Of a stretch of 64,000 bases of DNA, positions 1 to 47,600 are shown one piece after another (position 1 is the first letter of the stretch; each line of letters starts with the position of its first letter). The stretch is from positions 1,648,725 through 1,712,724 of the forward strand of contig BDGG01000003.1 of assembly GCA_001949185.1 (NCBI GenBank), in the 5' to 3' direction. This DNA is from Ramazzottius varieornatus. Lineage: Eukaryota > Animalia > Tardigrada. A program made the translations under genes and the position numbers. Below the pieces are notes generated by a model that ran no database searches, was not told where the DNA came from, and saw nothing but the letters and a program-made list of their open reading frames with translations.

Positions 1-2256
1 GACTTCAGTCGCTACCTGACCATGGTAAAAAATATTGCGATAGTCTACTGGTCAAAATGGGACGTGGGCGAACGAACTAAATTACGTTGTTACTTTAAGC
101 GGCGCACGTTTTTGTTTTACTGGCTGGGCGTCACTTGCGGAAACGATTAAAACTTGGACAAGAGTGATCTTCAAAGTGGCGCATATTTCCGTGTTATTGG
201 CTGGAACTGTGCGCCACTTGAGAAGATATTGAACTATTTTAAACCGTATATGCTCACATCTCAATAATGTTGAGCCAAACATATCAATTATTTCAGGGAC
301 AAATGGGCGCAGTGGAAAAGCGGGATATGACCTCTTACAAGAACAAGACGACGCTCGGTGCGAACCAGAAGCATACCTTCACGCGGTCGATCTTCGGTCG
401 GAACCTCACGAACTACCTTCGAGCCCTCTTTGCCGAAGTGGACATGGGTGATATGATTCAAGAGAATTCCACTGTGGTGATTCGCTCGACTGTATTCTTC
501 GACCGGCTGGACGAGAAGTTGAAGGAGCTGGAAGAAATGGGTGATTCGGGAAAGCGCCGTCTGGCGAACTACATTGGGTGGAGAGTAATCACTAGTAACA
601 TCAAGCACATCTCTCAAGACTATCGGGACACATTCGAGGAGCATCAGCAACGAATACAGGGCCAGAAAAGCAAGAAAGAAAAGACGGCAGCCGAACGGTG
701 TGCAGAAGACCTCAAGATGGCTATGCCCCTGGCAATTGGCGCCATGTATGTCCGAGATTTCGTACCGGCAGAACTGAAACCAAAGGCAAGAATACAAAAC
801 CGATTGTTGAAAGTTTTACAGGCGAACAGATTGCAGTTATATTACGACCCAGATGATACCATATTGGAACGGCAGTCCACTTTATTTATTTCTTCTACGT
901 ATTTTTGTAGGCTTCCATGATGGTCGCTGACATCAAGAACGGGTTTCAAGACTTACTCCAAGTGGCAAGTTGGATGGACAACGTCACGCTGAACACAGCC
1001 TTGGACAAGCTTAGTGGAATGCTCAACTTTGTGGGTTACCCGGGCGAACTCCAGCAAAATATTACTGCGGTAGATGAGGAGTACAGCGAGGTATGGTGCT
1101 AAGGTGTGTGCTAGCGTGCAGATTTGCCCATGGTTTAGTTATTTTGACGCCCTCATTACAGATGCACGTTGGTGAGAATTATTTCGAGACAGTTCAGGAG
1201 CTGAGCAAAGTTCAAGTGGTGAAGAACATGAAGAAGCTGCCCAAAGAAAACAAACGTTGGGACCCTATCGATGATGCCATGGATATCACTGCCGTCAATG
1301 CGTTCAACCTGGTAACGAAGAATATCATAGGTGTGTGGACTCACTGTAACAAAACGAGTAAGAAGTCTGGGATATCCAGTTCTCGAGCTCCAACTCGAAT
1401 TTGAATGTAAATTGTAGACACATGCCGCAGCTTGTTTCTACATTGGAAAAGCAGACTGATACACAAGACTTGCGGTTCTTTTTCCAGTGGTTTTGGCTGC
1501 TCCTCTACAGCAGCCTTTCTATGACGCCCAAGTACCCCAATACATCAACTATGGCGGCGTTGGATTCTTCCTTGGCCACGAAGTAACCCACGGCTTCGAC
1601 GATCAGGGTAAGGAAGTGGCTTCCTTTGTCTCGATTCCCTTGTTCTGACTGAGCTTCAGCCGCGGTTCTTCGTTTAGGTTCCTCGTTCGATACACAAGGC
1701 CTAATGCGCACGTGGTGGTCGAACACAACCAAAAAGCTATATGATGAAAAGAAGCAAGGCTTTGTAGAGCAGTACGGCAATTATTCACTCTCGCTCGGCA
1801 AGGTCAACGGTCAGCTTACTCTCGGTGAGAATATTGCGGACAACGGAGGCCTGAAAGCTGCATACCGAGTAAGAACGTTAGCATTCGGTCTATTGTGAGG
1901 TATTGTGAGCTATTGTGAGCAGTCAATCACTATTCCGAGTGCATGTTCAATGACTTGCGTTATGATGACAGGGTTACTTTGACCATTTCCGCCAGCGAGT
2001 CAAAGGTAATCGGGAGCCTTTACTACCGGGCATGACCAACTTCACTGCCGAACAGCTCTTCTTCCTTTCCGCCGGCCAAGTGTGGTGCTCCAGCCACCGT
2101 CCCGAATCATCCAGGCTCGATCTCCTGACTGATGAGCACAGTCCGTCCAAGTTCCGCGTCGTCGGTCCTCTGTCCAACATGGTCGAGTTCGCCAGAGCCT
2201 ACAAATGCCCAGTGGGCAGCAAGATGAATCCCAAGCACAAGTATTCCGTCTGGTAG
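1..2256 (+). CDS. Neprilysin-like M13 zinc metallopeptidase, copy 1 (5' end outside the window)
   Basis: Spliced exons (~<1-24, 296-785, 911-1090, 1162-1330, 1488-1607, 1678-1868, 1972-2256) encode LANYIGWRV, WMD, VNAF, GHEVTHGFDDQG (HExxH), GENIADNGG and HSPSKFRV...CPVGSKMNP..SVW. Confidence 0.95.
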
Positions 2257-2750
2257 ACTTTAAGCTTTTCTTCATGCTTCGAATTTTGATCTTTTGTCCT
2301 GCGATACTTTTGTAGGAGCTCTGTTCTCGAACGAACAGTAATCTGCTTGGCTTCTGTTTTCAAGTACGTTGCACGAACGACAAAAATGAGTTCTTCGATA
2401 CTGTAATCTAATTTTTCATAATGACCGTGAATACGATCAAAATGAGCTGTCCGACCAGTAGACGCGCGTTTTTATCTTTGATTATGATTGTGAATTATTG
2501 GTTCCTTGTTTCAATTTGTTTGGCGCTTTAACGACATTAGCATTTTATGAGTTCGACGTGCTTCGCTTTTCACTGTACAAAGATTTTTCTTTCGTTTCAA
2601 AACTGTGTTAAAATTAGTCGCTCCGTTCCTTCCATAATTCGTTCTGAAAACTATCGGTCTGAAGCAAAGAATAGCGGGTCGAGATATAGCGGGAGTTTGT
2701 GCTCTGCATTTTGTTGAATATTTGTGAAGTTTCGATCTCGTGAAGACTCG

Positions 2751-5700
2751 ATGATGGCACAGCGCCATTTTGACCTCAAACAGTGGCTGGTGATTCTTTC
2801 TGGTTTTTTTGCTGTACAACCGTTGTGCGAGGCGCAGAGGACGGACATCGGTGTAAGCACACCTGTGCCGCTAAATCTGAGTACCACGGTAGTATCGGTG
2901 CCCGGAAACTCCACCCCGGTCGAAGTTTGCACAACGGAGGGTTGCATAGCCATAGGTAAGTTATCAATAAAATTGCCACAGAATTGATCCTAGCCGGTGG
3001 AACATGCAAACGCTGAAACCTTATGTACGAATATTTCCTAGCTGACCAAATTTTGTCCGGAATGAATTTTTCGGCGGACCCATGCGACGACTTTTTTGCC
3101 TTTGCCTGCGATAATTACATTGCTAAACACCCTCTCGGTAATCGCAAACAGTTTAACGTGATCGGTGAGCTGAGGGCCCAAGCTGAGCAGCAAGTCACAG
3201 GTAACGTCTGGGTTTGTCAAATATGGGTGGAACTTATGGCAGGCACTCATCCTGTAAAGATTTCATTCTACAGATATGATGGAACCAAACGCCAATGACA
3301 CAATGACGCTTTCTGACGCGGAGCTGAAAGCCAAGCGAATATATGCCCAATGCATGCAAAACCGTACGGTCATATCTGGGAGGCCCGTGCAGACGAAACG
3401 TACAAGATTAATTTTTTAAGTCGCGCATGCTTCCATCCGTTATAACGAGAAGGTGCACCGCTTGAGGTAACGATCTTGTACGTTCTCGTTTTTCGACCAC
3501 CCATCGCCTAAATATCATAAGCGGTTCGGTCAACGGGTTTTTGGGGCTATGTCTTTGGTTTCAGGTTTGGCCAAGAAGCCAGATGTTGAACCGCTGCTCC
3601 GGTTCATGAATGCCATAATGCTCAGCGGATGGCCCATGTTGAAACCATCTTGGGACTCTTCCTCGTTCAACCTCTACAACGTGCTGCTGAACATGTCGAG
3701 TTTTGGCGTTCAGCCCTTTTTCATCACCGAGCTTGTACAGGACGTCGGAGACCCAACCCACAACCTCATCACTTTCGGCCAACCCACCACCTTTGCATCT
3801 AAAGACACCCTTCAGAGCGATATTGGTCAACAAGTGACGGTTTCGTATTTTGAGTACGTCGTCGGTGCAACGCGGCTTTTGCTGAAGCAGAGCGGTGTGA
3901 ACCGATCCGTGTCCGCTGTTATGAACGACGCAATGGACATCGTCGACCTCGAAATCGACCTCGCCATGGTAAACCAACGACCCTCAGTCCATCTTGGTTT
4001 GTCGGAGATAAATTGGAATGTCGGCAAATCACTCAAACATGATCATCTTCCCAAGTGACGCACAGTTCCTGCCAGTAACAATGAAAGCGTGCTCCACTTG
4101 AGAAAACTCATGTTCAGTTCATCCCCGACGTCAAAGTTATATTGATGTTTCTAGGCCGGTCTGGGTGACGTCGAACAACGGGACATCACCATGCTGAAAG
4201 ACAAAATGTCGCTCGGAATGTTCCAAAATAACTTCCTGAACCAATCCTCCTTCTTCCGCCAGTTCACCAGTTTCACACGCGACCTGTTCACGTTGGCCAT
4301 TCTCTCCAACGAAATCGACAGGAACACGACTGTAGTACCAATGACCGCGGAGGTCTTCCGTCGGATCGATGGTTTACTGGCATCTTTGGAAAGTTTAGGA
4401 GATGTTGGCAGACGCCGGATAGCTAACTACGTCGGGTGGCAGCTGGTCAACGCAAACTTGGCGTACTTGACGAAAGATTTTGCAATAGTACGCCAGGAAT
4501 ATTTGAGCAAGATTGGAATGTCAGCCAGCGATCCCAAAGATGACACTGCAGCAGTCGAGTGCGGTAAGAGTCTCCGACAAGTTATGCCTCTCGCCGTGGC
4601 TTCGATTTACGTTAGAAACTTTGTCCCACCGGACCTGCAACCTAAGGTATAACTACATAGATTCAGACCAGGAAGTGAAATAGAATACAGCACTGGATTT
4701 TCTGTCAGGCGGCGATGATGATAACAGACGTCAAAGCGGGTTTCGGACAAATGCTACGAACAGCGAACTGGATGGATGATGCTACTACCACCACCGCATT
4801 GCAGAAACTGCAAAATATGCTTGTCTTTGCGGCTAACTCGAAAGAGATCACGGACAACGCAACCGCGTTGAACAGAGAGTACAGCGAGGTCCGTGCCGCG
4901 TAATAACGAGACCAAAAGTAAACTGGTGGCGGATATTACATCTTTCCGCAGGTCAAAATCGGAGATACTTTTTTGGACACTATGCAGATCATCATCAGGC
5001 TGAAGGTTACCAAAAATCTGCGGAAACTGACCCAGATGAACGTCCGACCGGACCCATACAACGATGCATACGATATCACTACAGTTAATGCATACAACGA
5101 ACCGATTGAGAACCAGATAGGTAACTGCCGAAGTATACCTGCCTACCTGCAGTATTCTGTTAGTTGTTGAAGTGGACTTGTTTGCAGTTATTCTAGCCGC
5201 TATTCTTCAGTCTCCGTTTTACGACTCCCAAGTACCACAGTATATGAACTATGGAGGTATCGGCTTTGTGATTGGACACGAAATATCTCATGGATTTGAT
5301 GACCAAGGTACGCTCCAGTTGACCTGAGTTCTTGGCACAAAACGCACCTCTGAATACAATATACGCATATTGCGCGGAATATTCTCGATTTCGAACAGAG
5401 CAAACTTGTTTTTATAGGATCTCGGTTCGATGCGAACCAGCTTTTGCGAGACTGGTGGACCGACACGACCCGAGAGCTCTACGACAACAAAAAGGGTGGT
5501 TTTGTGAAACAGTACAGTAGTTTTTGTACCGAAGAAGTTGGTTGCTTGAATGGCAGACTGACGCTTGGAGAAAACATCGCAGATAACGGCGGAATCAAGG
5601 CCGCTTACAAGGTACCATAACTATCATAGCAGCGTTCTCAGATCGATCACACTAAAGTCAGAAAACGTGTATTCTTAATTTTTTAGTTAGTAACGTTTCC

Positions 5701-11398: not shown

Positions 11399-14300
11399 AT
11401 GTATAAGCTCTCAGTTGAAGAGCAACATCAGCTGGGTAGTGAACTGATATTGAAATTCCTCCGTTCACGCATTTGGGATGGCTGGAATGACAGTAGCAGT
11501 GTCTCGCTTAATAATATGTGGGATTCGCAAGAAGTAATGGCCCTCATTAACGAGACCATCTTGGGCGACAGTCCGGTGGATTCGTACGGACTGGCGGCGC
11601 ACCCTCTGACCGCTGACGTGGCTCCGGTGCTCAATGAAGGGGAAAATGCGCCACTTTACGAGGGCAACTTCACCCACGTCCCGGCGCCCTATGGCGGGGA
11701 TTACTTCATGGCTTTCCACAAAGCCTACTTTCCTATTCACGGCTATTTAGCCATTGTTATCAGCATCTTTGGCATCGTCTCCAACGTCATCAACGTTGCG
11801 GTTCTTTCGCAAAAATCTATGGTGACACCAACGAATGCCATTCTAACAGCTCTAGCGGTGGTCGACGTCCTCGTCATGCTAACTTACGTGCCGTTCGCGC
11901 TCCATCAGTTTATCCTCCGGTATACTTTCACCATGGTGGAGTGGAGAAGTTACTCATGGATGTTGTTTATCTGTTTCAACATTAACTTTACCATTGTGTG
12001 CCACACGATCTCGGTCTGGTTAACCATCACGCTCGCCGTCTTTCGTTACATTGCCGTCTCGTTTCCCAACAAAGTGCAAGAATATTGCTCAATGCGCCGC
12101 GCCATTTTGGCCATCGTCTCGGCCTTTCTGTGTACGGCCATCATCTGTACACCGTCCTACCTCAGTGTCCAAGTGACCCAGCTGACGCGAGCCGACTGGA
12201 CCGAGGACCAACTTGAACAGATGGACCCTGTCGATCAGAACACAACCATGTACCGGATAGACGAAAGTGACCTTTCCAGAAACAACAATAACATCCCGAG
12301 GATTATTTCGTTTTACGCCTTCTCCGTACTGGCTAAGCTGGTTCCCTGTGTCGTGCTGACTTTGCTCAGTATCCAGCTCGTTCGCGCACTCATTCAAGCA
12401 GAAAGAAGGCGTTTTCAATTGAAAAATCCCAACGGATTACCCCCTCGTCGGCCTATTCCCGTAAGGAACCAAACATACTACAGCGCATCGAATGTATTGC
12501 AATTTTGACGTATACGTCAAATGAACTGAGCAGAATCGTTTTCTCCGGTGGCGCACGTTCTCATTGCTGTTGGCTGGCAGCGTGCGCCAGTTGGAAATGC
12601 GATTGTGTTCAGGTCATTTGACGACGTTCCAAGTATCGTTTGGATCGATCCAAAACCGTAACGTTCCTTCACTGAATATCCGAAAATAATAAAATTTTCC
12701 GGTAATAAAAAATTCCTTGTTCGAATACTTGCGGTATTCCTGATCCGGTACTGAATCATGCAACGTCACCGAGACGAGCAATTCATGGAGATACACAAGA
12801 TCGTGATGGCTTATGTCAATTGTTCAGTTTGTATCCGTGTAAATTTTCGTCGGCTTTGATCTTTCGAATGCATGATCAAGCTCATGGTTACCACGAACAT
12901 CCATTCACACTGATGAACTAACGGCCCTTCCTCCCTACAACAACAAAATCATACATGAATGAATGCTCGATCCCTGTCCGACTGTTTCCTCTACCAAGCT
13001 GGAGTAGTTATCGCATCGCTGCGCTGACTGCCTCATTAGGAGTCAACAAATTTTTCCCTTTCAGCAGAATCGTTGATAGTGAAATGTACTTCCGCAGTCA
13101 TGCACAAATCAAAAGAGCGCAACTCTGTCCCTCATTAATTCTTCAGTATCCAGAGTCGATATTGTTTTCGGCTTGAACGACACAAGTATCAAATCCTGTT
13201 AACCTCACGTATCCCATTCCCAATCAATACTTGGAATTACCGCTCCACAGTGCGACTGTTTCCATCGCACCCTTCTGATGCACGCACTCAGTCGGTTCAA
13301 TCACTCAATCAAGAATGTACTTCCAGGTTACCGCTCAAAACAAATAAGCGGTCTTTTTGAAATCAATACGTGTACTTTTTCCATGTAGTACGTATCTGGT
13401 TATTGAGCATGGCCTAAGACGAAGAGAAAACTTTCCATCGCGATTTAATAGGCTGATTTGCGGCTGTAATATGAGTCAAGAAATTTCGAGGCACGAAGTC
13501 CATCTTGACACTATTAGCCGGGTCGAACACTTTTCTTCCTTATTAACAAGTTATCATCTCTCGGCCGCATTTGCTCATCAGTCCCTTCCGCGCAAAAAAA
13601 GTTGGAAACCAAAGGCTTAAGACTAAAAGCTACTGAGCGATTGAGTTCAACTAGAAGTTTCAAGGAATGTGTCAGAGCGACTGTTACTGGTTGATGGTTT
13701 TGACGAACTGGGGTAAATTGCATTCTGGAGTTAGGACCAACGTCTAACCAGTGGCAATTTTCTACAAAGATTCTAGTAGAGCTGGGCAAGGAACCACTGT
13801 GGTCACTCTTGGTCGAATGGAATTAGCGCTATTATTTCTTTTCTGAAGAAGTGAAACCGGAACAGTCGTGAAGTATTAGTGTTGTATTTTGACAGAGTAA
13901 CCCCGCTACCACTGGGACCACTTCAAACGGGCAGCGTGGCTCGTTAGGCCCGACGGAAACGACGCAGTTCCTCTTACCTCCTGGAGGGACTACTACTTTT
14001 ACTACAAAAACCTCTAACAACAGCCCCTCACACAATCGACCAGTCGGTCGAGATCGAACAACGCGGATGCTCCTTGCCATCCTCGTTTTTTTTCTCATCA
14101 CCGAGTTCCCATCTGGACTAGTGGCCTTATTCAGTTGTTTCTCCCCGGACTTTTTCAAATACGTCTACGGACCTTTGGGTGACCTGATGGACATCCTAGC
14201 GTTGATCAACAGTTCAGTGAATTTTATTTTATATTGCTCGATGAGCCGGCAGTTCCGCAAAACCTTCTGCTCGATGTTCGTGCCGAAGCCGATCACGCAA

Positions 14301-18168: not shown

Positions 18169-19340
18169 TCAAGGGTTAGTTATCCTAATCAGTTGAAAAG
18201 CTGCAGGCTGTTGTTCACCGCTAGAGTTCATGACGGTCGAAAGTGGATGATTGGGCAATTGTAGTGGGTAGACCTGATTTTGGATGACTCCTGCCGGAAG
18301 CTGTACTGCAAACGATAAAGGCCGTGGTTATTATTTTAATGGCGCGTCTATAATAAACAAAGCCCTAGATCGTACCATGAAACTGTGGGGGTGTAGCCAA
18401 AAAGCTACTCGAGCCAGACGGGGTCTCTGTAGAGGAAGATGAGGGCTGATGGTTGGGTGTGGTCTGTACGGGAAGATTCAGTGCCAGTCCGGGGTTGAAA
18501 TAATTCATCTGGAAGGGCTGAGCGCCTTGGATGAAATTCTGACTGACGATACGGTGGCGGGAAGGTAAGTCGTAGGTGGGTTTTAACTTCTTGCAGAACT
18601 GCACGAAGAAAGGGTTTTCGACGGTTGAAAGTGGAAGGTTGGCGGAGAAGAGATAGTCAGCCAGAGCCCGATCAATTTCCTTGTTCTCTTCGATCAGGAA
18701 GGAACGATCGGATATGGCTTTCCTTTTCTTCTTCCTTCGAGACTTTTGAGGAGAAGAAGGCTTCTTGCGCTTTTCAGAAAGGCGTGAGTTGTCGTTTGGT
18801 TCCTCGACGGATTCCTCGTTGGTTTCCTCCCCAGTGGTACTCTAGAACAAAATCCCATCTTGAATCGCGTATCACTCCTACCATACAATGTACACTAAGG
18901 GAACACACGTCGAACCGCGCAGTTCGACAGAACATTCTTCCCTCAAACTTCAGACCGGAAAACAATTAATGGGAGGTCGAGAAATGAATCCACTCAGATT
19001 GTTTCTCTAGGTGGCGCATCTTCTCAACCGACAACAATGAAAACATGCGCCACCTGTTAAAGCTGTCTGCCGAGTGTTTCCCTAGCTTCCAAATGGTTGG
19101 AAGAGCCCTACGAATGGCCAGGTTCCGTACTTCGGTGACATCTTCTTCGATCTGTTCATGGTATTCCCGTTTGACTTGTTCCGGACATGCCGTGCAGTGC
19201 TTGGCTAAGTGGGTCTTCATCCTGACGGTATTCTTCGCACTGACCCAACCGCAAAACCGACACTTGGCCTTCTCGCACTTCATCTGCTCATCCTTGGTCA
19301 GTTCAAAGTACTGGACGCAAGTACTCTTCTTGCGACCCAT
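18169..19340 (-). CDS. BED zinc-finger protein derived from a hAT transposase N-terminus, without catalytic domain (~270 aa)
   Basis: Exons 19340-19131, 18841-18376 and 18305-18169 splice in frame. Content: AKCRFCG...RMKTHLAKHC (BED), KRKK/RRKKKRK NLS-like runs, IDRALADYLFSANLPLSTVENPFFVQFCKKLKPTYDLPSRH (hAT segment), P/Q/S-rich tail. Without exon 3 the gene would stop at 18365. Confidence 0.8.
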
Positions 19341-25800: not shown

Positions 25801-28500
25801 AAGCAAGAAAAGCACGGATTCACCAAGGTTTCATTGCGATCGACGAGATTCTGATTGAGGATCGCATGTTACCGGTACCCGACCCTGCCGACGAGATTGC
25901 ATGCAAGAATAAAACGCTGTGGCATTGTGACGTGACGCGTATCTGTATTGAGCAAGACAAGAGGTGCGACTTCACGGATGATTGTGGTGAACGGGAAGAC
26001 GAGAGCGAGACAGACTGTCAGAAGACTCATCCTTTCCGGTGTAGCTTTGACGATGAATCCTTATGCGGGTTTTGGAAAAACGATCATCCGAAATCTGATG
26101 TGCGATGGATACACACTGCGTCTCGCACACCGACTGGTACGTTTCATTTGGGGACTTCGGCGAATGAATCCACTCAGATCGTTTTCCAAGCGGCGCAGGT
26201 TTCCATTGTTATTGGCTGAGGCCGTGCGCCACTGGGAAAAACGATCCAGGTGAATTCAATTGCTGACCGTCCGTTTCTTCATATCAGGTGCGGAAGTATG
26301 ACTTGTTACTCCTCCGACGAGAATCTTCAAAAATTTCTCCTGACTTCGAACCTCGGAAATTTTGATCAGTTATCCACCCATACTAGCAAGGTACATTCAT
26401 TTTTATGGCGTCGTGTTCGTGCCTTTACTGTAGCAGTATGGGGAAGATAAAAGATAAACTCTCCGCAGCCATTTTTTGCAGCCTCTCTGGAGAAAATGTT
26501 TCTCTCACTGGAGGTGCTCTAATTTTGCGATATGGTGATGGTCCGTCAGGATAGGATCCTGACTTTTTGGTGTCAGAAGAAGAGTTTCCAGTTTCACCTC
26601 CTGCAGTTTTGCGGAAGCGTTTTGAACAGTGTGCACTCTAGAGCTGACTTGCAACAGTAGTGCTCTGAGTTAACTGAATAATTTCGTTCAGTGAACGACA
26701 ATTGTTTTTATCATTTTTACCCGTTCCAGAGAGGTCTAGTCCACAGTTATCGCTATGCTGGGCAGAACGATTTACAGCGCTTTACACTATAAGATAGCAA
26801 CCAGACAGTGACCGTAGTTTGCCTTTGGTGCCGCTCGCGATTCGATATTTTCTGCGGCATTTCCGCTGTTTCGAGACATTTCAATTTTTGCTTCAGAATG
26901 TCTTAAAAAGTCCATTCTTTGTCACCGGTAACAACGTGACTTGGGGATCGGTTCGCTGTCATTCAGGAATTTGAGGTTATGGAAAGCCAAATTCTGCGTT
27001 CATCGTAAGGTGCGCGAGGTAAACGGGGAATCCGATTCCACAACTGTTTTGTCTTCCCGTTTTGTCCGGATGTCCAGCAAAGATTTAGTTAGACACCTTA
27101 GAGCCTCATTGCCAGTTGCAAGATTTTACCAGAGTTCGGGGAGAATCGGATTCAACAGACTCCCCGAGCCTGTTATTGTCCAACGGCAGTTTCGGTCTTC
27201 CGTAAAGGGTGACTTCCGACCTAGAAATCTCCAGAGCTGAGAAGAATTACCCAGCCTCAACGGTTTAGCTAATGGCTTCTATATCAAGAGAAACAAAGCA
27301 TATCTTCGCGCCTGTGTGGGATGCGCTGAAGCCTTGAGAAAATTCGAACAGATGAATCACTTCAGATTTTGGCTATCCATGATTCCGAAAAAAACATGCC
27401 TGCCCTACCCCGGAGCTGAAAAACTTGGGTTAATGGAACGCCAAACGATAGCTAGGAGTTGACAAAGTGACTGGGAAAAAGGCGCAGGACAAAACGACAA
27501 GGGGGAGTGTAACTATGAATTTTTGAAGTTAGGGTTTTCAAGGAGTAACAAGTCATACTTCCGCACCTGATACGTATACTGTAGCCGAGTACGTAGTCGA
27601 ACTGTCACAGGAAATTTTCTCTGTTTTGCAGCGTATTCAGGGCCGTTGCGAGACCATACTACCGGGCTAAAGGGTGGCGGTTACATCCATGCGCCTTCCG
27701 TTAACGGCAGTGTTCTGGAACGACACAAAGCCGTACTTTACAGTCCCGTCTTCGCCTCTACAGAGGAGAACGGTCATTGCTGGATGCGCTTCTACTATCA
27801 CATGTTCGGCGAGCATATGGGATCTCTGGAAGTGATCACCGGGATAGAAAGCTCGCCCAACTTCTCGTCTCCACTATTCAACGCAAGAGGCAATCACGGT
27901 GACCACTGGCTTCGAGGTTCCGTGAACCTTGTCAGCTCAGCGCCTTTCCGTGTAGCTTTCATCGCTACAGTTGGAGGCGTCAGAAGCGACCTTGTACGTC
28001 TCCAAAACAGCTTCTTGAGTAGCACAGAATGCAGCCAAAAGCGCTTAGAACTTTCTTCGTAGGCACTGGACGATATTTCTTTTAGTCCAAAATGTCGGCT
28101 GTATGACACCTCGACAGTTCCGACGCTTCTTCCGGTAACTAGTACAAGTCGTCCAATCGATCTTTCAAGTGCAAGACCCGGTACAACCATACAACCAACT
28201 TCGACAAATCCAGCTACGGGTTATACCGTAACAGATAGTGTCAAGTCGACGGTTTCTTCAGATACCACGAGCTCGAACCCTGCTACCCCTCCGGTGGAGC
28301 AGGTACCCTATGGACTCGGAGGCGGCGCCATCGCCGGTATCGTGATAGGGCTTCTAATTGTCCTGGCGGGAGGCTTTGTTCTGTTGGTCCTTTACAGCAG
28401 GAAAGGTACCTCGGGGTCCATTATGCCTAGAGGTGTCTGGAGCAGGGACAGGAGTACTAACTACGAGGAGTTTACCGACACAGAAAATCTGGAACTCTGA
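22849..28500 (+). CDS. MAM and LDL-receptor class A domain type I membrane protein (MALRD1/apical endosomal glycoprotein-like)
   Basis: Signal peptide; several MAM domains (CDFENGECGW, DHT, CFSFWH, IAIDDI); two LDLa repeats (FKCTNGDAIPYAEVCNGRYDC..SDE; WHCDVTRICIEQDKRCDFTDDCGEREDE); S/T-rich stalk; TM GAIAGIVIGLLIVLAGGFVLLVLY; short tail. Confidence 0.9.
26284..27570 (-). mobile_element. Full-length (1287 bp) mariner-like element with decayed transposase, in a MAM gene intron
   Basis: Perfect 30-bp TIR TCAGGTGCGGAAGTATGACTTGTTACTCCT flanked by TA. Minus-strand remnants RIPRL (WVPHEL), VVTGDKEWTF* (IVTGDEKW) and PKSQDPILTDHH (YSPDLAPSDYH). Confidence 0.88.
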
Positions 28501-31394: not shown

Positions 31395-33255
31395 TCATTT
31401 GATGTCATCCTTGCCCACGGGTAAACGAGGGGGAGAACGACTATGCGAGCAGACTTGAGATGCTCCCCACCATCCCTGCAGGTCGTGGTAGACCTTGTGC
31501 TTCATGTTGTCGGCGTGGAGCAACCTGTCAACCAAAATCCAAATACAACGCCGGTTCGTGAACGAACAGGAAATGCCAACCGAATATCCAACTTCATGCA
31601 AGTATTTCTCACGCGCAAAGCCGGCAGTGGAGCTTCGTGTCGATCATCTCACCCGTTCCTTTCCACTGGAAGTACTGATTATATTCCGTATCATTCGCAT
31701 CGAGACGCAGTAGGTAGTCAGCAAGGTCCTTCGGCGAAGCGAAGTCCTGAACATGGATGAAAGACTTGTGAGGAGCCACAAACTCGTAATCAGTCCGCAA
31801 AGGACCCATCACAACTGGAAGTGCGTCGTTTCTACACGATCATATATAGTTATAATGGTCAAAGATTCTTAAGAATTTTACAATTTTCGAAGGACTCCAA
31901 ACTCACTCCAGGGCAAACCACAGCTTTTCCGTGATGTAATCCTTGCAGTTACTATTCTGGGGAAATACAGAAATACAGAAAATGGGAGCTGGGCAAACGA
32001 AGTGAGCCAGATGGTTGACTCAAGTGGCGCACGCTTTCGTTGTTATTAGCCGAAAACGTACGCCGCTTATGAAGACGATCTGGTTCAGTTCAGTCGCCTA
32101 AATTTCAAGTTTTTAATGCGGCAAAATGTTCTGTTCGTTTTTTTCTCACCTCGAAGGACAGGTAAAACTTGTACTCTTCCCGAAGTAACTTCCCTCCGCA
32201 CTTGCCCTTCTTGGGGCACTTCAGAGATCCGCAGGATCCATAAATATCCACCTCAATGTATTCCGCCAGCTCCCGGGCGTACTCCAGCCGTTTGTTCGCC
32301 GTCTGGCAGTTTGACACGAACCAAGCTACTTTCTTCTTACCGGCTTTCCTTCCCCCGTAGTCCAGGGCCTGTGGTTTTGCAAGGACTTTTGGGTCGTACA
32401 CTACCCATTTCCCATAGGGCGTCACCAGTTCACTGTCCAACCGATAACTGCAGCCAGAAGCGAAATCATTCACATTCAATAAGCTTGTACTCCTCTTGAT
32501 GATGATGAAGAAAACCTTACGTCGCAGTCCAGTTGATACGGCCATACAAGCGAGAGAACTCCGAAGTGTGGTGCGGTGACTCCAAAAGCGACAAGATCCA
32601 TACTTGGTCCGGAGGGCGAGTTGAGCCCTACCAACAGACACAAAAGATATCTTTCTGCAAAATGACCAAACTTTCACGTTATCTTGGTCGAAATACAAAG
32701 CGAGCTCACATAATGGATTTCAGATGGCGCGTTGTTTTTGAATAGAATCGCATCAGCCTCCGCTGACTTCGTCCAATCATAGGTGATCTTACAGTGGTTA
32801 ACCAGACACTTTTTCTTTACAAAACACGACCGTCCATGTCCCGGTCTTTCTAAGCCCCTCTCCGTCGAGAGAATCAGTTTTATCCTGGTAGGTTTCTTCT
32901 TCGGTCTGTACAACAGTTGGTTTTCGATGCGGTCGCTGTTCGGCTGCATCTTCGGCCAGAGATGCCATACTTCGTCTTGTTGGACAGGTGACACGTGTTG
33001 CATGCTGGCGTTCGTCAAGTACCATCTCTGCACCGGCGCGTCGTCCGCGTCCGTGTCCGGACCATCCTCTTCGAAAGGTAAAGTACGCTGGGGGTTCAGG
33101 CGAAGAGTAACGGAAATCATGATGTAGGTAGCTAATGCTCCCAAGGTGAAGATGCCAGCTAGACCACGCCGGCATGATCGCCTCCCGGAAGTGAAAATCC
33201 GTAAGATCAACTCAAGCTGTTTAGGGAAACTTTCGGGAAGGAACTTACTCCTCAT
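31395..33255 (-). CDS. Alpha-1,3-fucosyltransferase (GT10, FucTA-like)
   Basis: Type II TM; SYRLDSELVTPYGKW, KKVAWFVSNC, VDIYGSCG, YKFYLSFE|NSNCKDYITEKL, APHKSFIHVQDFASPKDLADYL. Confidence 0.93.
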
Positions 33256-33655
33256 GACGCACGAATGGCTCAGATCTACATGGTCATAATGCCTAAAATT
33301 CCCCCCAGACTGGCATCCGAACCTTCTGTCCGTCAGATATCACTACAAACGGGATATCTGCCACAAGACAGGTTTCGTTTTCTCAAGCAGAAAGAGCAAA
33401 TACACAGTAAATACTCAGAGACTGAAGATGGTACAATCTTTACTCTGAGCGACAGATACCGGCTTCAAGAGTTCAACAAACCGCGACAAAGCCCGCGAGC
33501 AAATCTTTGCAAATACAGGTTTGCATTGGAAGTATCAAGTATTAACCGCGATATTTCTTCTCAAAGCAACCGCAATAAAGCGCTTGGATCTTGGCTTCTT
33601 GATGACATTTTCTGGAGCATAAACTAAAAAGCGGGATTCGAATTCTGTCCAAAGA

Positions 33656-35013
33656 TCATAGTAAAGTGTTTTTCCACGATTTGGGCGGAGGTAGCGATAT
33701 CAAGGCGCTCATAAGACGGCTATCCACATGTGCGGCGGCTCTACACGCAGTCTGCAATGGAAGGAAAGTCCTTTCCGTGAACAGAGCGTTCCAGAAAAGG
33801 CTCGTATCTAGTTCAAAACTGTCAACAAATGATTTACCTCCATGGCTTCATCGATAAGGTTAAGTTCGAAGCCAAACTGTGAGCCTTTCCAGTCAGTGTT
33901 CTGATAGAACAGCGTACCCTTGCTGTTGGTCGCTATCACGACGGACGCATTGGCCGCCACTTGCTCTTCCTTTGTTACATCCACCAGGAAAACCGGACCA
34001 ATCTATCAGAGAGACACCAGCTGAGTAGTCAGAACACACTTGGTCGGGAATTCAGAGTACCATACTTTATGGAGGGAAGTAACAACGGGAACGGAAGTGG
34101 CATCCATCTGCCAGTAATCATACGGATCATCAGTAAACTCCACTTCGAACTGATCCAGCTCATCTTCGACCACCGTGACGTTGGCGAATTTTGTATCAAA
34201 GAGCGCGGCTTTTACTGCTAGGGAAGCAGCGTCGAGTAACGAAGTGCCTTTCTCGAATATCTGGAAAGGAATTATTTTTCACTGTACAGCTTTGCGACCA
34301 TCAAAACTAGTTTTCTGCTCACTATGAGATCGAAGAAGAGCGCCCAGCATTTCGACCCCTTCACAATGCAGAGTTTTCTTCTGTCGACACCACCAGATTC
34401 TTGATAGACGCTCTGAAGGATACTGCGAGCTTCTTGGGGACTGCGGGACTCGTCTTCCTCCTCGTCATGCTTGTGACTTGTCAGAGGCGAACTACAGAAT
34501 GCATCGCTACACGGAACACTTCCTCGTGATAAAATTAGACGGAGAGAAAAATTATTGGAATACCTGTCAATGGAAAATTCGATAAAACCGAAGTCAGGGT
34601 GGGATTTTGAGGGTGTCTTGATGGCAGTCTTCACAGTGGCCAGAACGCATGTTTCTCCCTGCAGAAGAACAGATCGATCAACAATCAGCCACGAATCCCA
34701 TTGTGACCACGAAAATAAGTGTGCTTTCACCAGCGTGACTCTTGCAGATCCGCTGGCGCTTAGGACTTCGCCGATGCTAATATGAATCGTTCTGTAATCC
34801 AGAGGGCCACGGCCATCGAGTCGGAAATCATAATCCTACAAGAAGAGTTAACTGAGCATCTGGAGAACAGGAGAGCCGGGCAGTGAGTGATCAGACGACT
34901 TGCTATCGTACGATTATGCCTTCCGATAGGAACTGTTGCTCGCTAGCATTGATGTACGAATCCTCACGTTCTTGCAGAACAGACTCGTCTTGCGCAGATC
35001 TCCTCTCTCCCAT
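33656..35013 (-). CDS. EXOSC7: Exosome complex RNase PH subunit RRP42
   Basis: Spliced EQQFLSEGI|DYDFRLDGRGPLDYR, SGSARVTL, ETCVLATVK, GFIEFSID, KLCIVKGSKCW, IGPVFLVDVTKEEQVAA. Confidence 0.85.
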
Positions 35014-35566
35014 CTCGCTATGTTTCGTTGTCTTGCAGATTTGGTACTTCTCGGGAAAACAGCATGATGGATGAAAGTCAAAATGTGTGGAATGATTGAT
35101 GATAGTTTACTTCCAGTGACATACTGTGAGTGATGTAATACTGCATGTTTTGTACATGATTATAATTTTACTGTCATGTCACACTGTACAGCATACCAAA
35201 GCCCTCGACGGGATTAACTTCCCCGACACAAAGACCGTGCCCACAGATGGAGTTGCTGACGTCCAAAGTTCTGACACCTGTCACTTTCCTGGTTATCCAT
35301 CCTTTCGCTACCATCACCCCTGAACAAAATCTCCATCAGGCTTGTCACGTTCTCATTTTACTGCTGCATAATAAAATATCCCCGATCGTTGTTCACACGA
35401 GAAGCCGCCGCGATACCAGCTCGTAAAACACTGATGAAACGTGGAATGAGAAGAAATGACAGATCAGTGACCAAGTAGACAATTGTGCAGAAGTTAATAC
35501 AGCAATTAGTTACAAGGAACGATTCCGGTTAGAAATTAAAATGACAACTGTGCAGGACGGAAGTTC

Positions 35567-35746
35567 CTACTGTTTCACCTCCGACTTGTAGGTGTGCTTC
35601 TCGGTTCCGTCAGCCTTGACCACGTGCTTCTCCTTGACGTGTTCGTTACATCCTCCACATCCGTCAGCAGAATGGGCGTCCTTCTTGTACTCGCTGGTCA
35701 TCTTGCCGTCCTTCACTTCGACCTTCGACTTGGTGTGCGACTCCAT
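35567..35746 (-). CDS. 59-aa hydrophilic Lys/His-rich microprotein with a CGGC motif, function unknown
   Basis: ATG-to-TAG ORF MESHTKSKVEVKDGKMTSEYKKDAHSADGCGGCNEHVKEKHVVKADGTEKHTYKSEVKQ; gaaATGG start context; 11 of 12 Lys codons are AAG; upstream TATAAAA. Confidence 0.75.
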   Translation of the reverse strand: MESHTKSKVEVKDGKMTSEYKKDAHSADGCGGCNEHVKEKHVVKADGTEKHTYKSEVKQ

Positions 35747-35862
35747 TTCTGCTGAACTTCGGGGGAACTCTGGAATATCTGGAAGAAAACAGGCGCAAGA
35801 TTGTAGATTAGCACAACAAAATTCTAAAAGCTTGTGACTTCAGCAATGGCGGTGGATAACGC

Positions 35863-35869
35863 TTTTATA
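35863..35869 (-). promoter_or_regulatory. TATA box for the microprotein gene
   Basis: GTATAAAAGC on the minus strand, about 115 nt upstream of the ATG. Confidence 0.6.
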
Positions 35870-36152
35870 CGTATTAGGGCAAGAAGGACGCGTCCATAGC
35901 TTTGAGGGCGTCAAAAAATGTCGGTACTTTCCATGGACCGCCTCTCTAAGCTTATCCGACTATCGATTTTATCATGCGGTAATTTTATCCGCATGACAAA
36001 CTCATTGTCAAGTGACTACCCGAGGCAATTTTCACGTAATAATCTGCATATACCGACAGTAAGGTTCTGCGAGAGCAAACAAGTCATCGAAACCGCTTTG
36101 TCAACACAATCTACTCTCTTCGGTGCCCACAGAAACATCAGCTGATAGCTAC

Positions 36153-36602
36153 CTAGCCACTATCGGCAAAGGTATCGAGGGAGCGGAGCAGGTGGGATTT
36201 CAAATTGAAGGGCACCGTAAGCAAACTAACGCAAGTCTTTATCTTAGTGACTGGACCTGTTCGACAACTTTGAAACTAGAAACCCAGCACACTACCAACT
36301 TCTCACACGCACAGACTGTGAAACAGGGCTTACCGCTTCCGGCTCTGAACCAAGGTTTCTCGTTGTGCTGACTAGGTGACCGTCCTTCGTGACTGACTTT
36401 GAGTCTTGGCGCAAGGTCCTTGGATTCGTGCAAAACCCTGAAAAGCAAAATGTAAACTCAGAAAAAAGATGCAGTTCACAGCAGTACATAATTAAACGGG
36501 CAACCTATTCGAAGAAGAAGAATCATTGAACCAGAAGGAAACGCCTTCGACGTCCCCTCCGGTCAGGAACACCGTGGTGACCGTACCCACTAAATCAAGA
36601 AC
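36153..36602 (-). other. Possible small spliced orphan gene or lncRNA (5' end unresolved)
   Basis: Three segments join in frame across two GT-AG introns (VLDLVGTVTTVF...SN|RVLHESK...AGS|GPVTKIK...SG*); no family recognised. Confidence 0.3.
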
Positions 36603-44662: not shown

Positions 44663-47600
44663 ATGGCGGATAGTGGTCAAGTCGAGGCGCTTCTGCAGAA
44701 CGGTACTGTGCAGATGAAGGCTGGAGGCATTTCCGGAGACTTCAAGGTTCCACCGATGAAGCATGAAATCAAGGCTGTAGCGCTGCACTCCTTCGGCGGA
44801 CCACGGTCAGTCAAGGTGGAGAATCGACCGGAGCCCGGCATGGAAAAGGGACAAGTCCTTATTCGGGTCAAAGCTACGTAAGCGTCTGTTCTTGCTTTCG
44901 AACATCCTCACCCTTTACAAGAGCACCATATGGGACGGTGTCGGCAAATGGACTGCACATGGTCGTTGTCACAAGAAGCGCACATGTCTAGTATTTCTGG
45001 CCGGAGGTGTGCGCCACTTAGTTAACGATCATGTTGGAGTCCTCCGCCGACGTCCCATATGGTCGAACCTCAACGACTGTTAGTACAACTTTTGTCGCTG
45101 TTATGCAAGCGGCGGCCCTTCGGGTGCAGGTCTTAATATGCATGCGATGTCGTTGTAGGGGAGTCAACTTTTTGGACTTGATGGCCCGTCAAGGAGTCTT
45201 AGATGGTGCCCCGAAGCTTCCCGCCGTGATGGGCTTTGAACTGGCTGGAGATGTCGAAGCATTTGTGTCGACCGGGTCAAGCAACATCATGGACATCAAA
45301 GTATGGAAACAAGAATAACATTTCAGGCTGCTCTATTTGGATGGCTGCATATGAAAACTTGCCAGATCGTTAGTCAAAGTGGCGCAGTCTTCCAGCCAAC
45401 AACAATGTATACGTGCGCCACATGAGAGAACGAACTTGCACTTTTCGTTTGCCGGCCTCCATTTTCTGTCTTTTTCGGCGAACGATTATTAGCAAGGAGG
45501 CAGGAACGTACAGCACCCGAAGCGTGATCTAATTCTAGATTTCTTGATTTTACAGCCAGGAGATCGGGTGATCGCTTTTACGGATTACAACGCCTGGGCG
45601 GAAGTGGTTTGCGTCTCGATCGACTACGTGTACAAAATGCCAGCCCATATGAGCTATGAAGAAGGTGCTTCCATGCTGTCTTACGTAACGGCTCATCTAC
45701 TGCTCTTCCACCTTGGGGGACTGCGCAAAGGACAGTCGTTGCTGGTGCATTCGGCCGGCGGATCAGTGGTAAGATGTGTCAAGCTTCATTGACATCTAAT
45801 GCCTACAGAAAGTCCTAAAGAGCTCGCCATAAAAGAGCGCATCGTTGACTCCGCCAAAAGAAGAGGCAGGCCGAAACTGCTGACAGCTCTCTTACAGTGT
45901 AGTTGGCCTTGGTCCTTTTGCTTTGCTTCGTAAGTGCGGACGGAATGGGTAAAATATCGATCCATCCAGGGTTCGTCGCTTCTCGTTAGTGGTCCACTTT
46001 GTTATGTAGACAAGAAAAATGAGAAAGAAAACAGGAAAGGGAAGTGAAGACTGAGAGTCGTTAGAGGGGAAGTCAACGTGAGATCGGATGGAAATTTATG
46101 AATGCATGGTACGAGACTCGAGTCTCAGACTGATCCAACAAGTTTCCACCTGTAAGGCAACCCCGACGAGCCAATTACTGTACAGGCTTACTTCGTAAAC
46201 CGCGGGTACACTTCCTATGCACACGTCGAGAATAGTTTTCAGATGGCGCATGTTTTCAGCTATCCAGTGTGAAAACGTGCGCCACTTAATTTAGCTCGAC
46301 AAGATCGTTCTTTTCAAGTGGCGCGTTTTCAGTAAATAATGCTGAAAAGGTGCGCCTCTTGGAAAAACGTTCCTGTCAAGTATGCTTCCGGACTTGATGC
46401 ATAAAACACTTCGCCACTGTTACAAATATTCACCATCGCAAATCATAAGCTTTCTGACGGATAATTTTTCCAGGGATTAGCGGTGAGCCAGCTCGCCCGA
46501 ACGGTGGGCGACGTCAAGCTGATCGGTACAGCTTCCTTGCATAAGCACGAACACATCAAGCAGGCCTTCGACCAACTTTACGACCACGGAGAAGACTATG
46601 TGCAGGAAATCAAAAAGTAAGCAGCTGTCGTAATTTCCTTAACGACCCATTTCCGGGATACCACGGTTGGATTGCATGATCGGATGATATGCTGGCTTGG
46701 GCGTGGCCGCGTGGAATACTTTGTAAAGGCTACGGATTCACCGGTAATATGCCCTGCAGGATCGCTCCCGAAGGTTTGCACCTCGTACTGGACTGTCTTT
46801 CGGGAGACGACACTCATCGGGGAATTTCGCTGCTTCGCCCCATGGGCAAATATATCCTGTATGGATCGGCCAACATCGTGGCTGGGGAAAGCAAGAGCTT
46901 CTTTAGCTTGGCCAAATCGGTGAGAAACACATCAGCAAATTAAACTAAATCCTTGTCACTACAAAACTCGAACAAAAAAGCCGAAAATTAGTTGCTGAAG
47001 TTCGCATTTCGAAGGTACGGTTCTCGAAAATCATACCGCCTCTACCTGTTACTGCATGGTTTCCCCAAGCGCAGAAAAATTTACTGAAAAAGCAGTTTTT
47101 AAGTTTCGAATCGAATCGATGAATCGGCGGATAAGTACATTGTTTTTTCGTTTTAGTGGTGGCAAGTGGAAAAGATCAACCCAATGAGGCTCTGCGACGA
47201 GAACAAGCTAGTTGGCGGCCTCAACCTTCGCCACTTTCTGTTCCGTCAACGTGGTGCCAGTGAAGTGCGGGACATTATGCAACAGCTCTTCACGCTGTAC
47301 GACAAGAAGAAAATCAAGCCCGCTGTGGATTCCACCTACGCCATGGCGGATGTATACGACGCCATGAAGCGCCTACACGATCGCAAGAACATCGGCAAGG
47401 TCTTGCTGTGTCCCGCACAGGTCCCTCGTCCACGTACCATCCAACAGCAGCTAAGCGAGACCAACTCGGCTGGAGCGGGTAGTGTCAACGGTACCACGAA
47501 CCCTGCTCCCAGCACGGGGAGCTCGATACTAGGCATGGTTCGTCGGGCATTCTCACAGGATCAGGGAAACGGACACGGCTCGGCTCCTAATAGTCCTCCG

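Follow-up and report, generated by a model that had tools for sequence, protein, structure and literature searches.

RvY_07013 of Ramazzottius varieornatus, a 59-residue probable member of an unnamed family of very small desiccation protectants with predicted beta-hairpins

Described protectants and how RvY_07013 compares

Among the closest described systems are the T-DRYPs (Tanaka et al. 2022, PMC9592077), a set of 336 proteins defined by precipitation in 20% TFE followed by redissolution. The term denotes an operational fraction rather than a protein family, and the experiments described in the available part of that paper concern CAHS3, 8 and 12. The fraction is rich in ribosomal and cytoskeletal proteins, and its authors state that some members may co-precipitate with CAHS filaments. 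RvY_07013.1, the subject of this report, is itself a row of the S1 Data, where its length and mass (59 aa, 6.6 kDa) agree with the ORF analysed here. It falls in the up-regulated group as one of 72 T-DRYPs with orthologues up on drying in both other species, and it carries an IUPred score of 0.64 and the class 'Tardigrade-unique'. No 'RvY' identifier appears in the available main text of PMC9592077. Other unnamed drying-induced T-DRYPs in the S1 Data include RvY_01599 (log2FC 5.1 and 4.8 in the two species), RvY_13714 (2.1 and 4.0) and RvY_06797 (6.5 in H. exemplaris).

RvY_07013 resembles the CAHS proteins in that it is hydrophilic, predicted to be disordered, free of a signal peptide and present in the same TFE fraction. 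The two also share a pattern of constitutive expression in some species and inducible expression in others (PMC11448004), and the termini of CAHS D form beta-beta contacts (PMC10949331). The CAHS-type lack of a secretory signal is evident from hydropathy, the single exon and the position of the first ATG. However, RvY_07013 has only 59 residues, an all-beta model and no helical 19-mer repeats. The CAHS octapeptide is matched at best at 5-6 of 8 positions, a score reached by 404-1869 of 2000 shuffles, and the two-19-mer motif is absent. In addition, CAHS account for 5-20% of mRNA (PMC11448004), whereas expression of RvY_07013 in R. varieornatus is much lower.

The FABP-related SAHS proteins are likewise tardigrade-specific and beta-rich, but they carry an N-terminal secretory signal and FABP similarity. 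RvY_07013 has four predicted strands only and a transcript without an upstream coding exon, and none of the four family sequences holds a hydrophobic signal segment (maximum 7-residue hydropathy -0.07 to 0.3, with RvY_07013 at 0.3). Group 3 LEA, MAHS and Hero proteins are similar in being small, charged, low-complexity candidates for molecular shields. For Hero proteins, client protection survives shuffling of the sequence (PMC11448004). In contrast to LEA proteins, RvY_07013 shows no 11-mer enrichment, no helical periodicity and no LEA Pfam match; the best 11-mer match is 5/9 in three sequences (reached by 1455-1862 of 2000 shuffles) and 7/9 in the homologue P0002 (150 of 2000). Heat solubility, a trait associated with CAHS, SAHS, LEA and Hero proteins, is predicted for RvY_07013 from its composition. 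By analogy, RvY_07013 might work like the CAHS, LEA and Hero shields.

Metallothioneins have a high Cys content arranged in repeated CxC/CxxC clusters; RvY_07013 has 2 Cys among 59 residues, P0002 has none, and no Pfam family is matched. In thioredoxin-like oxidoreductases an invariant CxxC opens a helix of an alpha/beta fold, whereas here the Cys residues vary, the models are all-beta and the CGGC lies in a loop. The earlier note had set the protein apart from LEA, CAHS, SAHS and metallothionein, and this distinction is borne out by the motif, signal, Cys-content and Pfam tests.

The Mn-dependent peroxidase AMNP (g12777) is also tardigrade-specific and stress-linked, and it binds metal via acidic residues (PMC9145152). 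However, the AMNP fold is a beta-sandwich of seven strands that extends to residue 231 and includes three disulfides as well as a CD-CD motif (PMC9145152), and RvY_07013 has none of these features. It is too short for that fold, and the CD-CD motif is absent from its sequence.

Gene identity, neighbours and transcript

The window is the whole 64,000-nucleotide stretch that was analysed, and all positions count from its first letter. RvY_07013 is a real, expressed gene that is catalogued yet unstudied. The exact protein (computed mass 6576 Da) is already present in NCBI nr and UniRef, so the description of it as a hidden microprotein was wrong, and the ORF matches the R. varieornatus 'hypothetical protein' RvY_07013. 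The gene table of PMC5034306 lists RvY_07010 (fucosyltransferase), 07011, 07012 (RRP42), 07013 and 07014 (VPS9), which is the order found in the window and thus supports this identity. The RvY_07013 entry in that table reads 1 exon, hypothetical, 'No similarity'. On the RRP42 side, the sole database match is RvY_07012, whose sequence maps onto exons in the window.

Prior knowledge of RvY_07013 consists of the database entry and rows in published supplements. Main-text searches with RvY_07013, linked identifiers and peptide strings returned no relevant paper among those accessible, few of them from subscription journals, and further supplements may name the gene. A topic search with the same coverage returned no description of such a small tardigrade beta-hairpin family, and the family is absent from the accessible parts of one review and one family survey.

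The RRP42 gene occupies 33659-35080 on the minus strand, with a first intron (34836-34911) that is bridged by contigs, and the VPS9-domain gene (RvY_07014) runs from 37065 onward on the plus strand. Both neighbours are ordinary housekeeping genes. Neither a stress-gene cluster nor a tandem paralogue was seen near RvY_07013 in the window, and no second copy was found there by tblastn, HMM or blastn. Between the fucosyltransferase and RRP42 genes lies a 120-aa ORF (33265-33627, plus strand) that may be RvY_07011, a one-exon orphan reported as embryo-biased (27 and 24 FPKM vs 2.7 in active animals; PMC5034306 table). The window also contains a family of short interspersed repeats of 70-120 nt and 67-85% identity, located at 31990-32110, 45360-45460 and about ten more places (e.g. 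4031-4107, 12515-12634, 18995-19056 and 26175-26246). Two of these copies are piled with many divergent contigs from the run coded X15.

None of the 24 runs listed is on record as RNA, and RNA status was therefore judged by content, namely poly(A) tails, a CT..AC joint in the neighbouring gene (seen in X1, X7 and X11) and a 5' adapter. RvY_07013 is covered in six of the eight runs compared with the window, with nothing from X21 and X22. Contigs from five study codes (X1, X7, X11, X14 and X18) stop within the poly(A) sites given in the table. Non-templated poly(T) loose ends, read on the plus strand, occur before 35342 (X1), 35345 (X14) and 35349 (X18), the X7 and X11 contigs stop at 35348, and the genome has no T-run at these positions. 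At the other end of the transcript, the X18 contig stops at 35839, 30 nt downstream of the TATA box, and its loose end is read here as a template-switch adapter. Other contig 5' ends lie at 35838 (X14), 35850, 35862 and 36164.

Together, the contig ends, tails and adapter define a single-exon mRNA of about 490-500 nt in which the ATG of the ORF is the first and AGTAAA lies just upstream of the tail. The claim of a real gene is upheld by the polyadenylated contigs that cover the ORF, and the reported TATAAAA and favourable start context (G at -3 and +4) were found as described. An acceptor site suspected at about 35778 in the 5' region was rejected because contigs pass through it unspliced. The X15 contig over the gene, which is unspliced from 35078 to 36249 at a depth of 2.6, looks like DNA.

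A polyadenylated X1 contig reaches 36164, which is 325 nt above the main start, and this extension could reflect an isoform with a longer 5' end, a start site further upstream or divergent transcription. The 140 nt before the transcript start contain three GGATAA boxes (35854 on the plus strand, 35952 and 35985 on the minus strand), the last of which overlaps a 15-nt inverted repeat (35965-35979 / 35989-36003). These boxes are possibly GATA-type promoter elements. GGATAA is enriched across the whole window, with 40 matches vs 24 expected and none of 100 shuffles reaching 40. The CAHS promoter motif MRv-39 was not found upstream of RvY_07013 within 1 mismatch.

Table. Features of the RvY_07013 locus (window positions)
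Feature	Position	Strand	Evidence
TATA box TATAAAA	35863..35869	-	sequence; first base 30 nt above adapter-marked 5' end 35839
5' UTR, 93 nt, unspliced, no upstream ATG	35747..35839	-	contig ends; first ATG of the transcript is 35746
CDS, single exon, 59 aa, RvY_07013	35567..35746	-	ORF, database match, gene order in published tables
Predicted beta-hairpin 1, residues 4-25, D13-G14 turn	35672..35737	-	AlphaFold, both models
Residues 23-38, sole fully tryptic peptide >6 residues	35633..35680	-	reported coverage 27.12% = 16/59
Variable linker, residues 26-33, holding CGGC 30-33	35648..35671	-	pLDDT <50 at 29-33; Cys absent in P0002
Predicted beta-hairpin 2, residues 34-58	35573..35647	-	AlphaFold strands 34-43, 49-58; invariance 4/4
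3' UTR with AGTAAA (35362-35357), poly(A) sites 35342-35349	35342..35566	-	contig ends, non-templated poly(T)

Homologues, composition and predicted structure

Three close homologues were found in ENA records, each of 59 aa and at 73-86% identity. A sequence scan of 1.84 billion representatives returned solely the cluster of these close homologues. Our own sequence searches recovered no sequence from H. exemplaris or Paramacrobiotus, and no non-tardigrade relative was found. Pattern matches in JGI metagenomes (340), GTDB (69) and IMG/VR (475) included no relatives, the ESM Atlas gave no usable match (best 0.77), and Pfam returned no family for any of the four members. In a PDB sequence search, short DGTEK turns matched designed propellers when summed, though no individual stretch passed, and the only other matches had E>0.2; no PDB sequence matched the family at E<=10. 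A DNA-pattern match (L001) was discarded as chance, being out of frame inside an unrelated 347-aa ORF.

The composition of RvY_07013 is unusual. It includes 12 Lys, 7 Glu, 4 Asp, 5 His and 2 Cys, has only two aromatic residues, and lacks Leu, Ile, Phe, Trp, Pro and Arg, making it the sole such case among the 164 ATG ORFs of 45-80 aa in the window. AAG codes for 11 of the 12 Lys residues, compared with 6 of 17 in RRP42. A recount thus reproduced the residue counts, the absent residues and the Lys codon bias that had been reported. The GC3 value (44/57) is the highest among the same 164 ORFs and exceeds that of RRP42 (52% of 301 codons, a few of them double-counted at HSP overlaps; Fisher p=4e-4). 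All four sequences have a GRAVY of -1.4 to -1.6 and a near-neutral net charge of -2 to +1.

In the four-sequence alignment, 40 of the 59 columns are invariant, including H4, H36, H41, H51, E35, E39 and E49. Such invariance is weak evidence for the importance of single residues because four sequences at this level of identity leave most columns unchanged. The most variable part comprises residues 23-34, where 9 of 12 columns vary vs 10 of 47 elsewhere (p=9e-4). The CGGC at residues 30-33 is kept in three of the four sequences, and P0002 lacks both Cys. In hairpin 2, the odd positions E35 V37 E39 H41 V43 / E49 H51 Y53 S55 V57 are all invariant (4/4) and the even positions are Lys-rich. Position-specific conservation of this putative two-faced hairpin suggests that sequence, and not composition alone, matters.

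Two repeat-like features had been pointed out, and each holds in part. The internal duplication is real but weak, since its score is reached by 107 of 5000 shuffles for RvY_07013 and by 70, 43 and 18 of 5000 for the three homologues. The alternating polarity is significant as a beta periodicity in the three homologues (39, 9 and 2 of 2000 shuffles) but not for RvY_07013 alone (148 of 2000). None of the four sequences exceeds its shuffles in helical periodicity (100-degree moment at or below the shuffle mean).

AlphaFold places strands at residues 4-12, 15-25, 34-43 and 49-58 in the models of both RvY_07013 (pLDDT 67, pTM 0.43) and P0002 (pLDDT 80, pTM 0.55), for which the input was the four close sequences. 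Neither model contains a helix. The idea of a hydrophilic protein with two hairpins is supported by these four predicted strands. Judging from the strand limits, H41 would face H51 across the strands of hairpin 2. A single four-strand sheet without a hydrophobic core is unlikely to be stable alone, and this expected instability agrees with the IUPred score and suggests that folding accompanies assembly or loss of water.

Fold searches with the two models gave no Foldseek match at E<=0.001 and none at Z>=8. The best matches (Z 6.8 and 7.6) are to flat sheets, among them the pore hairpins of gasdermin and the lids of methyltransferases. A pore-forming role was considered and rejected because the protein lacks any hydrophobic segment. 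A putative likeness to half of a FABP barrel found no support among the matches listed, which include neither FABP nor SAHS structures.

Expression, candidate functions and significance

In R. varieornatus, RvY_07013 is expressed constitutively and moderately, and less when the animals are dried. The PMC5034306 table gives 441 FPKM in embryos at day 2, 154 at day 4, 186 in active, 118 in dehydrated, and 131 and 115 in rehydrated animals; RRP42 stands at 33 FPKM in active animals. The reciprocal-BLAST partners reported in PMC9592077 rise on drying: g14644 of H. exemplaris with a log2FC of 3.75 in a reanalysis, and PARRI_08541 of P. metropolitanus with a log2FC of 1.83 (3.6-fold, FDR 0.004). In PMC5531438 S7 Data, H. 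exemplaris bHd14644.1 climbs from TPM 45/87/12 in active animals to 3833/5168/5327 in the tun (about 48 to 4,800 on average, FDR 2e-17), and has no database annotation. The equation of g14644 with bHd14644 is supported by a check of six identifiers: five of five 'UP' test identifiers were found in the list, one with a matching LRRC15 label, and one 'DOWN' identifier was absent. The two analyses differ in the size of the induction (13-fold vs 99-fold) and agree in its direction. As computed from the PMC5531438 table, this reported relative makes up about 0.5% of all transcripts in the tun. The earlier note had called the protein abundant, which applies to the reported H. exemplaris orthologue when dried, but not to R. 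varieornatus, where expression is only moderate (115-441 FPKM). The proposed link to desiccation stress is supported by the presence of RvY_07013 in the reversible TFE fraction and by the induction of its reported orthologues on drying.

Radiation data in PMC11233135 point to further relatives. Among the matches listed, a P. fairbanksi transcript with RvY_07013 as its best hit rises after irradiation from 25,536 to 145,144 mean counts (5.7-fold, log2FC 2.51, padj 8e-17). Irradiation also affects H. exemplaris BV898_01496 (log2FC 1.26, padj 5e-7) and A. antarcticus rb_61463 (log2FC 0.72, padj 0.018), and the change in H. exemplaris BV898_01548 is not significant (log2FC 0.63, padj 0.058). These three genes are connected by best hits with LOC129584703 (P. 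metropolitanus), RvY_17964 and RvY_03899, all of them unnamed, and PMC11233135 marks the rows of H. exemplaris, A. antarcticus and P. fairbanksi as tardigrade-specific. All cross-species links are made by reciprocal BLAST (PMC9592077) or by best hits at e<0.05 (PMC11233135) from a short and biased sequence. Among the radiation-table matches listed, no H. exemplaris row names RvY_07013; the two family genes of that species match RvY_17964 and RvY_03899 instead, and one-to-one orthology is therefore not established. RvY_07013 is likely part of a tardigrade-restricted multigene family whose members in other species are known from BLAST links in tables.

Direct detection of the protein in PMC9592077 amounts to 1 peptide and 3 spectra. 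The coverage reported there suggests that the peptide seen is likely residues 23-38, since the other two 16-residue peptides would require 3 or 4 missed cleavages in an in silico trypsin digest. With one fully tryptic peptide of sufficient length, RvY_07013 is nearly invisible to shotgun proteomics, and the low spectral count says little about its abundance.

Our main reading, to which we assign a probability of roughly 45%, is that RvY_07013 is a hydrophilic, cytosol-type desiccation and stress protectant of a tardigrade-restricted family that acts by reversible, beta-mediated condensation. The protein is predicted to be largely unfolded in water, and withdrawal of water would fold it into two beta-hairpins. 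The folded form might then condense reversibly with itself or with CAHS networks, and the condensate could shield client proteins and membranes. Reversible contact through beta structure has a precedent, because gelation of CAHS D needs beta-beta contacts between its termini (PMC10949331). Constitutive expression in R. varieornatus combined with induction in species that depend on preconditioning supports a protectant, as this is the pattern described for CAHS and MAHS (PMC11448004). However, several observations argue against it. Expression declines from 186 to 118 FPKM in dried animals and is highest in day-2 embryos, the mass-spectrometry support consists of 1 peptide and 3 spectra from a fraction open to CAHS co-precipitation, the cross-species links depend on BLAST with a short, biased query, and the models derive from four close sequences (pTM 0.43 and 0.55).

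It is doubtful that metal chelation is the main role, yet the protein might serve as an antioxidant in which the His/Glu face of hairpin 2 (E39, H41, E49, H51, plus H36 and H4), in most members assisted by thiols of the CGGC, binds Cu, Fe, Zn or Mn and limits radical damage during drying and irradiation. The candidate ligands are invariant in all four sequences and the CGGC is present in three, and BLAST-linked relatives (the P. fairbanksi transcript, BV898_01496 and the A. antarcticus gene) rise after ionising radiation. However, P0002 has neither Cys, the loop is the least conserved part, BV898_01548 does not respond significantly, and invariance counts for little at 40 of 59 columns. Chelation would be compatible with the condensing protectant described above.

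The falling and embryo-peaked expression would also suit a developmental or housekeeping Ramazzottius protein that is carried as a passenger in the TFE fraction. The induced genes elsewhere would then be either remote paralogues or chance BLAST hits caused by low complexity. The 3 spectra, and the recovery of just 3 close homologues in database-scale searches, are consistent with such a protein. We consider it unlikely, as two groups with different pipelines tie RvY_07013 to stress-induced, tardigrade-only genes and as the spectral count is uninformative on abundance when one tryptic peptide is detectable.

Quite improbable is a polyanion binder whose Lys-rich face coats RNA, ribosomes, DNA or phospholipid head groups under stress. 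Most even positions of hairpin 2 carry Lys, the TFE fraction that holds RvY_07013 is enriched in ribosomal proteins (PMC9592077), and fold matches include proteins that bind single-stranded nucleic acids, namely Pur-alpha, PBF-2 and the coats of ssRNA phages (Z 5-6.6). However, all four sequences have a net charge between -2 and +1, Arg is absent and there are just two aromatics, and fold matches that all fall below Z 8 may reflect merely a common arrangement. The CxxC redox role raised in the earlier note, taken here as a thioredoxin-like catalyst or switch, has the CGGC of three sequences in its favour but is very improbable, given that one homologue has lost both Cys, the loop is poorly ordered in the model and lies in the most variable region, and there is neither a helix in the models nor a Pfam match.

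A broader proposal extends the condensing protectant. RvY_07013 would be the first protein recognised from an additional eutardigrade anhydrobiosis family, the smallest yet and built of beta-hairpins, with paralogues in Hypsibioidea and Macrobiotoidea. Drying would zip the protein edge to edge into reversible single-layer sheets, with the Lys face available to polyanions and the His/Glu face sequestering redox metals. We offer this combination tentatively and think it rather unlikely to hold in full. If it were true, one 6.6 kDa peptide would give both mechanical and antioxidant protection and aid cross-tolerance between desiccation and radiation.

Against novelty, hundreds of tardigrade-specific drying-induced proteins exist as list entries (PMC11448004), and RvY_07013 is one of them. 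The single detectable tryptic peptide and a mass that is likely lost from ordinary gels may explain why it was overlooked. Its reported H. exemplaris relative carries no annotation despite its share of tun transcripts. At 59 residues the protein can be made synthetically and assayed directly, and, should it protect, it would offer dried biologics a very small stabiliser. The likely placement of RvY_07013 is in an unnamed family of tiny desiccation protectants, for which beta-hairpin sheets, not helices, are predicted. The named protectants CAHS, SAHS and LEA are described as turning helical on water withdrawal, and a beta-hairpin family would thus be a different structural solution.
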